64,000 bases of DNA from Escherichia coli (GTDB taxonomy: Bacteria > Pseudomonadota > Gammaproteobacteria > Enterobacterales > Enterobacteriaceae), in assembly GCF_022846255.1 (NCBI RefSeq), contig NZ_AP025682.1, one strand, 5' to 3'. Below, piece by piece: positions 35,201 to 38,200 of the stretch; the first letter of the stretch is position 1, and each line of letters opens with the position of its first letter. The position numbers were made by a program.

Positions 35201-38200
35201 GTAATAACTTTATTGTTCTGGAATACAAAGAAAAAGATCCGCTTGATGTCACCCTGTGGTTGAAAGCGGATGCCACCAACGAGCACCCTGAGTGCGTCAT
35301 TAAGGACACTCCCGAAGAAGCCGTCGGTCTGGAAAAATGTAAGTGGACCATTAACGCACTCATTAATCATCACTACAAAATCGTTGCGGCCTCCTGGCAG
35401 GCGAAAAACAATGCTGCCCGCACGCTGGTGATGCCGGTTATCAAAGAGAATACTCTGACAGAGGGTAACAATAACCACCGGAACCTGGTGCTGCCTGCCT
35501 GGCAGTACAGTTCCGATCAAGCCGAACAAGAAAAACTCAATACCTGGCGGGTTCGTCTGGCGCTGGAAGATGAAAAAGGCAATCGGCAGAGCTCCGGTGT
35601 GGTGGAAATCACCGTTCAACAGGACCGTAAAATTGAGCTCATCGTTAACAACATCGCCAATGTACCGGATAAGAGCAATCACAGCCACGAAGCCAGCGCA
35701 CAGGCCGATGGTGTAGATGGTGTAGTGATGGATCTCGATATTACTGATAGCTTTGGCGACAACACTGACCGCAACGGTAATGTCTTGCCGCAGGATAATC
35801 TCAACCCGCAGTTGTTTGATGCCAACGATAAAAAAGTGACGCTGACGAATAACCCCTGCACTACCGAGACTCCCTGTGTCTTTATCGCCAAACAAGATAA
35901 AGAAAAGGGGACCGTTACGCTCTCCAGTACGTTGCCTGGCACCTTCCGTTGGAAGGCGAAAGCTGCTCCCTATGATGACAGTAACTATGTTGACGTAACG
36001 TTCCTGGGTTCTGACATCGGCGGGCTGAATGCCTTTATCTATCGTGTTGGTGCGGCTAAGCCCGTGAATCTTATCGGCAATAAAGAACCGTTGCCTCTCA
36101 ATAGCAGCTATCGCTTTGTGTTGTGGCGTGACGCTAACAAAGACGGCGTGTTCCAGCTATCAGAGAAACTCACTGAAGAGGAGATGAAACAGTATGACTA
36201 TCAGTGGGAATTCACGGGACATAGCGTGAATGGCAATACCGGTGCGCAAGCCAATACCACTAACGTCGATATAGAGATCCCGGCAACGAACAAGGAAGCG
36301 GCAGCGAAGTTTAGTGCCCAGGTAACCGATGGCGTGCAGGGATACGGTTTGCAGGTCAATTACAGCAAGAAATAGGATCAGCGCCATGGCTGATCGGGCC
36401 ACCGCTGAATGTTAACCAAGGAGAGTGTTTATGAAACCTCATATGAAACGTGGCCTGACAAAAGTCGCGCTGGCGCTGATGCTGGCTGGATACTGTGCCG
36501 TGCCAGCCGCTATGGCGGAAGATGCCGCCTGGGTAGACAGTGGGACGACCGCTGAATTCGAAGGGACCATACCCTGGCTTTATCGCGAGGGGGGGAATGC
36601 CACGATTAACTCGGATGATGCGGATCACATCAAAGTAACGTCTGATGGTAAAGGTACTCGTCCTTCAGGTAGCGAGACGGATAAACGCCTTTACTCAGGA
36701 GATACCATCACGTTGGGGTGGGATATCGGCGATACCGAAGGGGATATCGACGATGGTCCAGATGGTATTGATGCGAAAACGACGGCGACTATCAAATGGT
36801 ACAGCTACAGCGATAATGCGGGTGGCGGTAAAACGGAGCTGACCGCAGCGGCGGGTAAGACGAGTTATAAACTCACTGATAACGAACGTGGGCGCTATAT
36901 CGGTGTTGAAATCCAGCCTATCACTCAGACCGGTAATCCCTTCCAGGGAACGTCGCTGACTCTGCTGGATATCTCAACGGCCAGCGGTGGCGGCAGCGAT
37001 ACGGACAATGTTGATCCTGGCCCGGTTGTGAACCAGAACCTGAAAGTCGCCATCTTCGAGAAAGGCACCAGTACCAACCTTATCGGTGGTAATACAGCCA
37101 TTGCGCTTAACAAAACGTATGTGGCCAAACTGTACTCGGATGAAAACCAGAACGATAAGTACGATGCGGGTACGGATGTGGACGTTACCGCTAACTATGA
37201 CTTTGCATGGGTCTTTAACGGTAACAGTAAACAACTTGCTGCGGCGGGTGGTATTGCCAACGCCAGCTTCGATAACAATGACATTGTTATTCCGCAAACT
37301 AACGAACAAGCAAGAGCCAGCCTTAACGGTAGTGACCGTAATGGTAAGACCGGTCTTGCAATCCCGGCAAACGGCGACGGCGTCCAGGGCTATACGCTGT
37401 CTATCATTTACAAACACCACTAATGCGCACCAACAGCATTCCCGTATGGGAATGCTGTTTTCCGCCTGTTTTGCTTAGCGACGCGTTAAGCAAAACGGGT
37501 TGACGTTTTGTTTATCATGCTGGAGTTTTCTACATGTCGGTATGTCTGAAACCAGGAAAAATCATTGTGCTTCTGGGCATGTTGGCAGCCTTTATGCTGT
37601 CTGACTTTGCACGGGCAGGAGTGGAATGGCAGACATATCCTGGTTCTACAGGCGAGTTTAACGGTACAGTTCCTATTGCCGATAGCGCCAGCGTACCCGT
37701 CTATCAGGGAAGCGTTCAGCTTGATCCTGCTGCATCTCATGATGTGGCGTTTTCTGCTAAACCGAATGAATTTAGCGTTGACGATGACGCTGCTAACCTG
37801 ATAGTCGCTAATCCTCAGGACAGTGAAGGCGACCAGTTTTCCACACCACCTGCGCTGCGCTGGGAAAAACAAACGCCGCCGACCGTTAGCCTGGTGTGGG
37901 CCGATGCCGCCACGCCGGATACGCCGCTTAATCCACAGCCTACCGCCAACCGTAGCTTTTGCGCTCAGGGCCTGGCCGGGCGTTCGCTGGTGGCCTGGCC
38001 GCAGATTGATGCGCAGCAGACCATTCCACTGCTTTATCTGCTGACTTCGACCGGTTATCCCTATGAGGGGACGGTGGCGCTGGCTGACCAGAAAGTGACG
38101 CTGAACATCGCGCCCGCGCAGGGCGATTTAATCTCGGTGAGCGCCAGTGGTTATAACGAAACGATCGCGGCGGCGAAAACCACCGTTGGTGACACCATCA

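Follow-up and report, generated by a model that had tools for sequence, protein, structure and literature searches.

A covarying RNA hairpin at the sinI-ratA junction of Escherichia coli and its relatives, and its possible role as an RNase III processing site

In Salmonella the sinH-sinI-ratA (CS54) genes act as colonisation factors, and SinH is a candidate vaccine antigen in extraintestinal pathogenic E. coli. The literature on CS54, SinH and inverse autotransporters provides a gene order and a ZirT-like two-partner idea but neither transcript mapping nor any intergenic element. A first-pass annotation had noted a second stem-loop between sinI and ratA, beyond the sinI terminator, and had offered three possibilities for it: an RNA-processing structure, a regulatory one, or a component of an internal ratA promoter. 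Here we analyse a window of 64,000 nucleotides of E. coli contig NZ_AP025682.1, together with related loci in other genomes, and describe a hairpin conserved as RNA whose invariant positions are compatible with cutting by RNase III. Coordinates are collected in Table 1.

Table 1. Features of the sinI-ratA junction and of the paralogous junction in the window
Feature	Position	Strand	Description
sinI (SinI family autotransporter-associated protein)	36425-37423	+	ORF, 332 aa; stop TAA 37421-37423
Hairpin 1	37432-37459	+	12-bp stem, GUAU loop, -19.8 kcal/mol (folding)
Hairpin 2	37461-37503	+	20-position helix, 37461-37480 with 37484-37503; loop ACG (37481-37483)
Core of hairpin 2, 5' half	37470-37477	+	UUUGCUUA; pairs with 37487-37494
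Core of hairpin 2, 3' half	37487-37494	+	UAAGCAAA; pairs with 37470-37477
Predicted RNase III cut, 5' arm	between 37474 and 37475 (C/U)	+	register analysis and 2-nt 3'-overhang geometry
Predicted RNase III cut, 3' arm	between 37491 and 37492 (C/A)	+	proximal/distal-box rules
TTGACG, candidate -35	37500-37505	+	first four bases are the 3' base of hairpin 2
U-rich run	37504-37515	+	CGTTTTGTTTAT / CGUUUUGUUUAU; window-type clade only
ratA ribosome-binding site	37522-37536	+	GGAG 37522-37525, ATG 37534-37536
ratA-like giant adhesin gene	37534-45615	+	2693 aa
Second module copy	31232-31311	+	junction of a second sinI-like gene (30242-31222) with a truncated RatA-like gene (31296-33650)
Hairpin 1'	31232-31257	+	without U run
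Hairpin 2'	31261-31301	+	-19.2 kcal/mol, z = -8.1 (folding)

Two adjoining hairpins between sinI and ratA

The neighbours in the island are der, yfgJ-like, sinH, sinI, ratA and xseA only. The sinI product matches NCBIfam NF040711 (370.7 bits), and the RefSeq product at a 99.5% identical E. coli locus is about 330 aa, two codons shorter than the ORF in the window. Homologues of the ratA-like gene contain BIg21 and InvE_AD domain repeats. E. coli K-12, the strain behind the RNase III maps, is without the sinI/ratA locus; E. coli positive for sinH include ST131, ST648 and E2348/69.

Hairpin 1 follows sinI and has the arms AACAGCATTCCC and GGGAATGCTGTT, after which comes TTTTCC. The U run beside it (37458-37461) is partly within the stem, and only UUUUCC comes after the hairpin. 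Most of the 30 loci that were folded have a hairpin of -17 to -25 kcal/mol at this place, then 3-5 U and CC(G/A), and its sequence varies freely among loci. A consensus terminator scan does not call hairpin 1 because it has fewer than five T in eight positions. This terminator-like hairpin, whose U tract is short throughout, we read as an intrinsic terminator that is leaky. One natural allele, L1PEag1, is without hairpin 1.

Hairpin 2 adjoins hairpin 1 directly, with 0-2 nt between the two, and its base takes up the U run that follows hairpin 1. The elements of the first-pass annotation (the terminator hairpin, the second stem-loop, TTGACG and the ratA ribosome-binding site) are all where it had placed them, and the second stem-loop is both real and longer than described, the inverted repeat GTTTTGCTTA...TAAGCAAAAC at 37468-37496 lying inside the helix listed in Table 1. 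The core consists of 17 pairs (37464-37500), including a conserved wobble, G37464.U37500; two outer pairs (37461-62 with 37502-03) lie beyond a C37463/U37501 mismatch. The core stem is A/U-rich. Its block UUUGCUUA/UAAGCAAA is a G-C/C-G step with three A-U pairs on each side, and an invariant U.G wobble is found nine pairs below this block. The folding energy of hairpin 2 is -24.8 kcal/mol, compared to -10.0 +/- 2.5 kcal/mol for shuffled sequences (z = -5.97; none of 200 shuffles is as good) and -15.9 kcal/mol for the opposite strand. The window carries a second, paralogous copy of the module; a covariance model of hairpin 2, R1, scores 70.1 bits on the copy at the sinI-ratA junction and 49.2 bits (E = 1.4e-10) on the paralogous one (31253-31311).

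Conservation of hairpin 2 as an RNA helix

The two-hairpin module recurs between sinI and ratA in Escherichia, Salmonella, Citrobacter, Pseudocitrobacter and Superficieibacter, in loci whose SinI proteins are often only about 40% identical. Genomes that have it at this place are those of 19 GTDB species representatives and those of Salmonella enterica and S. bongori; a further 44 cases are metagenome contigs, these 44 being the matches in sinI-ratA context among 53 from metagenomes. Hairpin 2 ranks with the best conserved stretches of the region. It lies far outside what chance would give, since it is conserved with covariation in all of the orthologous loci examined except that of Leminorella. 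A lack of conservation in orthologues had been foreseen as grounds for doubting the stem-loop; the hairpin is strongly conserved instead.

Among 35 distinct sequences, 94% of 665 pair cells are paired and compensatory double changes are seen at 8 of 19 pairs (54 cells), which none of 500 shuffles equals; slid controls give 33-50% paired. An RNAalifold consensus independently returns the same helix. In an alignment of 22 sequences there are 62 cells with G.U but only 2 with A.C, an excess from which it follows that hairpin 2 is a sense-strand RNA structure; R1 scores are 48-72 bits on the + strand and at most 44 bits on the - strand. Together, the compensatory changes and the asymmetry between G.U and A.C show that selection acts on a sense-strand RNA helix. 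Six of the eight core pairs never vary in alignments A3 and A4 (35 distinct sequences), the other two vary in one or two, and the G.U wobble is kept in 34 of the 35.

A feature acting at the level of DNA, either a palindromic operator that a dimeric transcription factor would bind or TTGACG as the -35 hexamer of an internal ratA promoter, or both, is extremely unlikely. In its favour, both half-sites, TTTGCTTA and TAAGCAAA, are perfect and never vary, their spacing is 9 nt in most loci, and TTGA is conserved among the loci. However, the variable stem positions remain complementary via G.U and not A.C, which a DNA site does not need, and the half-site spacing is not constant: 8, 9 and 11 nt all occur, and E. 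albertii keeps the arms at a spacing of 26 nt. No regulator gene is linked to the locus. TTGA itself takes part in the helix: U37500 forms the wobble with G37464, U37501 is opposite C37463, G37502 pairs with C37462, and A37503 with U37461. A -10-like hexamer 16-18 nt downstream of TTGA is absent from about 40 variants, in which the best matches are 1-4/6 (in the window AGTTTT, 2/6), and a promoter scan reports none at TTGACG. The corresponding -10 position (37522-37529) overlaps the Shine-Dalgarno GGAG in the window, with the Shine-Dalgarno sequence at this place in many relatives too, and transcription would therefore start at about 37535, at or past the ATG. The suggestion of an internal ratA promoter is thus set aside, as the TTGA is explained by pairing in the helix, a -10 is lacking, and its place clashes with the Shine-Dalgarno sequence.

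It is also very unlikely that hairpin 2 is a back-up intrinsic terminator in tandem with hairpin 1. Tandem terminators are common, and in the window CGUUUUGUUUAU starts 2 nt past the extended stem (6 nt past the core stem), with a part of this run (37504-37514) able to pair otherwise, with 37487-37497, in a manner specific to the clade. In most clades, however, there is no U-rich run; Salmonella has AUCACGACAGAG and Citrobacter AACGCGACC at this place, and the downstream sequence is not U-rich in Superficieibacter or in the E69-type E. coli loci either. The earlier description of the stem-loop as lacking a T-tract is only partly true of the window, the run being confined to the window-type clade and absent from Salmonella, Citrobacter and the others. 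A terminator scan of positions 36000-39000, for a G+C-rich stem-loop with at least five U in eight positions starting 0-2 nt behind it, calls nothing at 37461-37515, the A/U-rich core stem is unlike that of a terminator, and termination would explain neither the sequence invariance nor the need for ratA to be expressed from upstream.

Hairpin 2 is locus-specific. Its pattern is present in 792 of 5426 E. coli genomes at a median of one place per genome, and there is one exact match in the window. A dispersed repeat (REP/BIME or ERIC) or the end of a mobile element is ruled out because the hairpin is single-copy in each genome and specific to this locus. Comparison of the window region with Rfam 15 yields only noise (STnc350, on the opposite strand and with 17.8 bits where the gathering score is 60), and there is no Rfam match at the junction of the Salmonella and E69-type loci; hairpin 2 is outside every described Rfam family. 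A search for long-range partners of the core 8-mers elsewhere in the loci finds scattered, non-conserved matches only, and inspection by eye of the sequence upstream of hairpin 1 reveals no antiterminator or alternative pairing with hairpin 1. We also considered a 26-codon ORF (37423-37503) that overlaps the sinI stop codon in TAATG and ends at the conserved UGA of GUUGA, but rejected it: already in the nearest relatives its frame is lost through a 1-nt indel, and the ATG is missing from most loci.

Fit to RNase III rules and alternative RNA-level roles

RNase III sites are over-represented in 5' UTRs and in regions classed as 'intergenic within transcript' (PMC6212723). The in vitro rules are a minimum of 11 bp and a single set of proximal and distal boxes (pb and db), which suffices, with pb1 G-C, pb2 A-U/U-A, pb3 A-U, pb4 A-U/U-A, and U-A and U.G in the distal box (PMC1540722). 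Preferences in vivo are for G-C/C-G at the central A/A' positions, A-U/U-A almost always at D/D', and G at position J upstream of C1, in an enzyme valley that accommodates ~22 bp (PMC6212723). A G-C or C-G pair at pb2 (position D) blocks binding, and pb4 is likewise not G-C/C-G (PMC6212723, PMC1540722). The fit of hairpin 2 was judged by the verbal rules of these two papers.

From column 19/56 down to column 8/67 the helix of hairpin 2 counts 12 positions, and over its whole length 20, within the rule of at least 11 bp and ~20-22 overall. In the A4 register counted from column 56/19, which is that of the predicted cuts in Table 1, pb4, pb3 and pb2 agree with the rules in 35 of 35 distinct sequences, and the db2 wobble at pair 9 is present in 97%. 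Placing the distal-box wobble at pair 9 relies in part on the presumed sequence of uR1.1/RNA 6, cross-checked only by the C9:G30 numbering and the statement on position J in these papers. Position pb1 is G-C in 34%, G.U in 20% and A-U in 46% of sequences; db1, next to the wobble, is the canonical U-A in four of 35 sequences and a U/C mismatch in the other 31. Between the staggered cuts the pairs are G-C (34/35) and C-G (33/35), as the in vivo rule has it, and D and D' are precisely where the invariant block stops. In the 5' to 3' direction that leads from the predicted cut, AAA (37492-37494) followed by A or G fits the proximal box from pb4 to pb1. When the same pair columns are randomly re-ordered, the observed best score is reached in 369 of 20,000 trials and the strict pb+db2 pattern in 97 of 20,000, the strict test being one defined after the data were seen. 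A second register, with a cut between 37486 and 37487, fits the proximal box equally well, and the helix above the predicted cut has 6-7 bp only. An RNA-processing or regulatory structure, as had been proposed for the stem-loop, is favoured by the compensatory changes, by the preponderance of G.U over A.C, and by invariant pairs resembling those of RNase III substrates.

We tentatively regard hairpin 2 as most likely an RNase III processing site, a prediction which has somewhat less than an even chance of being correct. Since its invariant bases fit the RNase III rules, it probably gives the sinH-sinI message and that of ratA separate fates. Transcripts of sinH-sinI that pass the leaky sinI terminator into ratA would form hairpin 2, acting in cis, and we infer that RNase III would bind its lower 12 positions. 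The proximal box on this lower side would be A-U, A-U, A-U and then G-C or A-U, and the U.G wobble, nine pairs from the cut, would sit at the place of the wobble that a canonical distal box requires. Cuts with a 2-nt stagger are expected around the invariant G-C/C-G step. Cleavage of the 3' arm would leave a ratA mRNA starting 5'-P-AAAACGGGUUGA, the predicted 5'-monophosphate end being AAAACGGG..., about 40 nt before the start codon, while the sinH-sinI RNA would end at or near hairpin 1 and resemble a terminated transcript. In this proposal the stability of the 8-kb adhesin message would be uncoupled from that of sinH-sinI and hence so would its expression, with ratA going either down or up.

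A passive stability element with no RNase III cut is an unlikely role for the hairpin, which would serve on read-through transcripts as a barrier to 3'-5' exonucleases for the sinH-sinI RNA, as a 5'-proximal stem-loop or an obstacle to RNase E scanning that protects the ratA RNA, or as both. In favour of this role, hairpin 2 is very stable (-24.8 kcal/mol) and has a promoter-proximal gene pair on one side and a giant distal gene on the other, with the ratA start 33-49 nt away in most loci. Moreover, the U run of hairpin 1 is paired into the base of hairpin 2, so that an RNA end generated in the linker would lie within a helix. If the role were purely structural, however, A-U, U-A and G-C pairs should exchange freely along the stem, yet six pairs never vary in the 35 sequences and the wobble is fixed in 34 of them; hairpin 1, which has just such a structural role, does vary freely.

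The strictness of this conservation bears on the RNase III proposal as well. In cells RNase III cuts at degenerate sites, and natural substrates do not share a conserved distal box (PMC3867540), such that RNase III alone demands no invariance as strict as that of hairpin 2. Recognition by a specific trans-acting factor or by RNA polymerase, for example in processive antitermination over the 8-kb ratA gene in the manner of HK022 put or Bacillus EAR, or by a dedicated RNA-binding regulator, is quite unlikely, although invariance within a helix beside a fixed wobble and mismatch is in keeping with it, as are the abutting hairpins, their intra-operon position before a very long, horizontally acquired gene, and their absence from Rfam. 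The two-hairpin module would then be a previously undescribed regulatory RNA that binds a factor or the polymerase and is specific to SinH/SinI/RatA two-partner inverse-autotransporter operons, for example a chromosomal put-like or EAR-like signal or the target of a regulator that licenses transcription or translation of the giant adhesin, to which we give a distinctly low probability. The invariant core with its fixed wobble and mismatch would in that case be the recognition surface and not an RNase III site. Against these interpretations, no candidate factor gene co-occurs in the island, HK022 similarity is lacking (the best R1 match, of 15 bits, is to a terminator-like hairpin), no Rfam match is obtained at E <= 10, and hairpin 1 is terminator-like and varies freely.

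Significance and relationship to known systems

A covariation-supported RNA element, absent from Rfam, is thus present in at least five genera at the boundary between the translocator and partner genes and an 8-kb adhesin gene. Hairpin 2 offers a concrete means of learning whether control of RatA output is post-transcriptional. Should the RNase III proposal be true, it would be a rare natural chromosomal site at which near-optimal proximal-box and distal-wobble determinants are kept over a long evolutionary distance, and it would be useful for testing cleavage rules in vivo.

Several known systems share parts of this organization. REP/BIME hairpins stabilise mRNA between cistrons, as in malE-malF, and are found in hundreds of dispersed copies. 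Like them, hairpin 2 is a stable hairpin that separates a highly expressed gene near the promoter from distal genes whose expression is lower, but it is single-copy per genome, specific to its locus, and of another sequence. The put element of HK022, which consists of two adjacent stem-loops, and EAR, which lies inside a long Bacillus surface-structure operon, both act in cis. The sinI-ratA module resembles the former in its paired stem-loops, the latter in its operon setting, and both in its presumed action in cis; it differs from both in that no sequence or model similarity was found and hairpin 1 is an ordinary-looking terminator.

The order of elements is closest to that of rpsO-pnp, where, as reportedly described by Portier and co-workers and by Jarrige et al. 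in 2001, RNase III cuts a stem-loop in the pnp leader just past the rpsO terminator and thereby uncouples the fate of the downstream mRNA. In both cases an upstream gene, a partly read-through terminator, a long stem-loop without a U tract and the downstream ribosome-binding site follow one another in the same order. There is no sequence relationship, however, and the pnp hairpin is longer and tied to PNPase autoregulation. In addition, pnp has its own promoter between terminator and hairpin, whereas none is detectable before ratA, where cleavage is predicted only.

At the level of the helix, a close parallel is the intercistronic hairpin R1.1 of phage T7 and its minimal form uR1.1 (Pertzev and Nicholson 2006, PMC1540722). 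These share with hairpin 2 a proximal box of A-U, A-U, A-U and, in about a third of the hairpin 2 sequences, G-C counted from the cut, a U.G pair about nine pairs away, and a helix of 11-12 bp on the recognised side. The complete set of pb and db in hairpin 2 is on the base side and not the loop side, and its db1 is a U/C mismatch. Its central step is likewise different, being not an internal loop but paired as G-C/C-G, the arrangement that is preferred in vivo (PMC6212723).

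The sinI-ratA junction and its tandem copy

Two stem-loops lie between sinI and ratA, a terminator-like hairpin after sinI (hairpin 1) and the element under study, which precedes ratA (hairpin 2, 37461-37503). The junction features reported in the first-pass annotation are all exactly placed in the sequence and its second stem-loop is present, although the extent of the latter was understated: folding gives a core of 17 pairs (37464-37480 with 37484-37500, loop ACG) and two outer pairs, U37461-A37503 and C37462-G37502, beyond a C37463/U37501 mismatch. The folding energy is -24.8 kcal/mol (z = -5.97; 0/200 shuffles as good), and only 18 inverted repeats of this class occur in the entire 64-kb window. 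An imperfect palindrome (CCGTAATGGTAAGACCGGT/ACCGGTCTTGCAATCCCGG) is situated at 37336-37367 in the 3' end of sinI, the same stretch in which coding-region conservation is lowest (column identity 0.22-0.47).

Features of the sinI-ratA junction and of the second, tandem module (window coordinates)
Feature	Position	Strand	Basis or description
sinI stop TAA	37421-37423	+	sequence
hairpin 1	37432-37459	+	perfect 12-bp stem AACAGCAUUCCC/GGGAAUGCUGUU, loop GUAU, then UUUUCC
hairpin 2 inverted repeat	directly 3' of hairpin 1	+	sequence
TTGACG	37500-37505	+	sequence
ratA ribosome-binding site GGAG	37522-37525	+	sequence
ratA start ATG	37534	+	sequence
inverse_SinH gene of second module	within 28035-33650		731 aa; 1400 bits
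SinI-family gene of second module	within 28035-33650		326 aa
RatA-like gene of second module	within 28035-33650		truncated to 784 aa
paralogous two-hairpin module	31232-31311		hairpin 2' intact, R1 49 bits, -19.2 kcal/mol

The genes are arranged in the Escherichia-type order der / yfgJ-like / sinH / sinI / ratA / xseA, and 752 of 5426 complete E. coli genomes match the junction region with 98-99.5% identity; most belong to ST131, ST648 and similar lineages, and RefSeq names the flanking genes in them 'SinI family autotransporter-associated protein' and 'adhesion domain-containing protein'. The literature describes sinH-sinI-rat as a ZirT-like two-partner inverse-autotransporter operon, and in it we found neither transcript mapping of the sinI-ratA junction nor an intergenic element. 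An inverted repeat (34230-34275; arms of 21 nt that are 90% complementary, loop of 4 nt) falls in the signal-peptide region of sinH, within the first 75 coding nucleotides. Each sinH copy is preceded, ~100-200 nt upstream, by an AT-rich inverted repeat whose arms are 24 nt long (34001-34053 and 27878-27932); the two repeats share TTGTTTTAT and are candidate sites for regulation of the operon promoters.

The second copy of sinH belongs to a tandem sinH / sinI / RatA-like module (28035-33650) upstream of the main one. Of 5426 complete E. coli genomes only 8, E2348/69 and relatives, have a match to its sinI/ratA junction (30900-31700), at ~85% identity, and the allele as well as the tandem arrangement therefore seems unusual. 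A covariance model of hairpin 2 (R1) found a further copy of the hairpin, hairpin 2', at 31253-31311, between the second sinI-like gene and the truncated RatA-like gene, with an A-U pair at the position of the C/U mismatch. The accompanying copy of hairpin 1 is followed by UAUUACCAGC and has no U run, and is therefore unable to act as an intrinsic terminator.

Conservation across genera and natural variants

Junctions were collected from 19 species-representative genomes (Pseudocitrobacter, Citrobacter, Superficieibacter, several Escherichia species and Leminorella), from Salmonella enterica, S. bongori and one divergent E. coli allele, and from 53 metagenome contigs identified by a strict DNA pattern search. 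Conservation at orthologous loci, the point on which the first-pass annotation had staked its reading of the hairpin, is seen at every locus collected except Leminorella. The module consists of a variable G+C-rich tetraloop hairpin with only 3-5 U, followed by (U)UCCGC, hairpin 2 and GUUGA, and it persists where SinI identity to the window protein is only 40-45%. The arms of hairpin 2 have mean column identities of 0.91 and 0.87 in an alignment of 15 loci over 520 nt, equal to the best coding segments and above the remaining intergenic region. A sinI homologue and/or ratA homologue accompanies 44 of the 53 metagenome matches; the remaining nine are AT-rich, have no UUCCGC flank and appear fortuitous. 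Hairpin 2 is present in one copy per E. coli genome, which rules out a repeat element, and no description of it was found in the literature searched or in Rfam, where no family matches it.

Several variants alter the surroundings of the hairpin. E. coli L1PEag1 (NZ_CP145513.1, L002 1601-1735), in which ratA is annotated as a pseudogene (internal stop), has lost hairpin 1 through a 29-nt deletion between AATGC direct repeats and has kept hairpin 2. A ~180-nt REP/BIME-like insertion interrupts hairpin 1 in Escherichia sp. E1V33 (L009 4552-4843), and at another locus (L019 5383-5539) an insertion of ~55 nt separates hairpin 1 from hairpin 2; because the UUCCGC flank and hairpin 2 are retained together in both, the flank is part of hairpin 2 and not of the terminator. 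Leminorella grimontii, the most distant locus (L021 5410-5502), has a canonical terminator and then a different hairpin (UUUUGAAAAG...UUUUUCAAAG) abutting the start codon, which R1 does not detect and in which a UUUUG/CAAAG segment is kept.

Hairpin 2 is an RNA structure of the sense strand

Pairs were counted in two alignments, one made with MAFFT from 22 sequences and the other, of 35 distinct sequences, guided by the model. Standard pairs fill 94% of the pair cells, two-sided changes occur at 8 of 19 pairs (34 cells in the 22 sequences, 54 in the 35), and none of 500 shuffles attains the observed pairing and covariation values. Pairing drops to 33-50% when the 3' partner is shifted 1-3 columns out of register, and RNAalifold predicts the same helix without being given it. 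The 22-sequence alignment contains 62 G.U cells versus 2 A.C cells, so that the opposite strand would have 80% of its cells paired, against 94%; the + strand also folds better than the - strand by 9 kcal/mol, and R1 scores 48-72 bits on + and at most 44 bits on -. Hairpin 2 is thus a sense-strand RNA structure, which supports the options of an RNA-processing or regulatory structure in the first-pass annotation.

Its third option, an internal ratA promoter using TTGACG, does not survive. Hexamers 16-18 nt downstream agree with TATAAT at 1-4 of 6 positions at best across ~40 sequence variants, the expected -10 position is occupied by the Shine-Dalgarno sequence in the window and many relatives, and TTGA is conserved because it forms the 3' base of the helix. 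Any role as a DNA operator or promoter is extremely improbable, being contradicted by the wobble asymmetry and the variable spacing and lacking a -10. E. albertii NBRC 107761 (L018 5412-5487) has an apical loop 17 nt larger, a compensatory G-C to A-U change (UUUACUUA/UAAGUAAA) within the otherwise invariant core, and TTGC in place of TTGA; the enlarged loop and the core change would not be tolerable for a fixed-spacing operator.

A U-rich run (CGUUUUGUUUAU) follows hairpin 2 only in the window-type clade, so the earlier description of the hairpin as lacking a T-tract is only partly true of the window. A conserved terminator is rejected on these grounds, and a back-up terminator behind hairpin 1 is very unlikely with the run not conserved. 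A 26-codon ORF (37423-37503), beginning at an ATG in a TAATG overlap with the sinI stop and ending at the conserved UGA of GUUGA, was also discarded; it is not conserved, since a 1-nt indel breaks the frame in the nearest relatives (AR_0077, P. vendiensis) and other loci lack the ATG.

Possible processing by RNase III

Judged from sequence, hairpin 2 may most plausibly, if tentatively, work through RNase III processing of sinI-ratA read-through RNA. Its near-invariant 8-bp block (U-A, U-A, U-A, G-C, C-G, U-A, U-A, A-U; 37470-37477 with 37487-37494) has freely co-varying pairs on either side, and near the base are a G37464.U37500 wobble fixed in 34 of 35 sequences, the C/U mismatch and an invariant C-G. 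In E. coli in vivo, the RNase III valley spans ~22 bp, and 5' UTRs and intergenic stretches inside transcripts are enriched for sites; both positions enclosed by the staggered cuts (A, A') are base-paired, preferably G-C/C-G, those three steps out (D, D') are nearly always A-U/U-A, as G-C there blocks binding, and the favoured base nine steps away (J), along the strand upstream of cut one, is G (Altuvia et al. 2018, PMC6212723). In vitro, the minimum helix is 11 bp, and a single set of proximal box (pb1 G-C, pb2 A-U/U-A, pb3 A-U, pb4 A-U/U-A) and distal box (U-A and a stringently required U.G wobble) is enough to specify a cut (Pertzev and Nicholson 2006, PMC1540722).

With A/A' set on the G-C/C-G step, the invariant block coincides exactly with D-C-B-A-A'-B'-C'-D', and cuts are predicted at 37474/37475 and 37491/37492, with 2-nt 3' overhangs and twelve helical positions below. 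Read away from the cut, the 3' arm gives A, A, A, then G or A, satisfying pb4 to pb1 in 100%, 100%, 100% and 34% of sequences, and the U37500.G37464 wobble lies at pair 9, oriented as required, in 97%, G37464 being the G at J. Pair 9 is taken to be the canonical wobble position in part from the uR1.1/RNA 6 sequence; this agrees with the numbering C9:G30 and with what the papers state for position J. When the same pair columns were randomly re-ordered and flipped, 369 of 20000 trials attained the observed best score and 97 of 20000 the strict pb4+pb3+pb2+wobble pattern, a test defined after the data were seen. Most sequences have a U/C mismatch at the first distal-box position (db1), the helix above the predicted cut has only 6-7 pairs, and an alternative register (cut 37486/37487) fits the proximal box equally and lacks the wobble. 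Since sites cut naturally by RNase III are degenerate and show no conservation of the distal box (PMC3867540), the enzyme alone does not require this much invariance.

A passive stabiliser or exonuclease barrier is unlikely and would leave that invariance unexplained. Recognition by a specific factor or by RNA polymerase, for example in put/EAR-like processive antitermination, is a still poorer prospect, since the known examples share no similarity with hairpin 2 and there is no linked factor gene. R1 has a weak 15.3-bit match in the early-left region of phage HK022 (L083 28192-28229, minus strand), a UUUGCUU...AAGCAAA hairpin that is terminator-like because CUUUUUGAUAU follows; we take the match to be a coincidence of A/U-rich stems.

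A plausible course of RNase III processing is that hairpin 1, with its consistently short U tract, would terminate part of the transcription from sinH-sinI, and that polymerases reading through would produce hairpin 2, to be cut around the G-C/C-G step. An upstream RNA end would be left close to hairpin 1 and the ratA RNA would gain a 5'-monophosphate end ~40 nt before its start codon, at first still paired over 12 positions to the upstream tail. The 8-kb ratA message would then have a fate independent of sinH-sinI and be either destabilised or activated. As an RNase III site hairpin 2 would be a further example of a well-known kind of element, and it is notable mainly for its cross-genus conservation and its place in a virulence/vaccine-antigen operon. 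The succession of hairpin 1, hairpin 2 and ratA resembles the arrangement of the rpsO terminator and the pnp leader.
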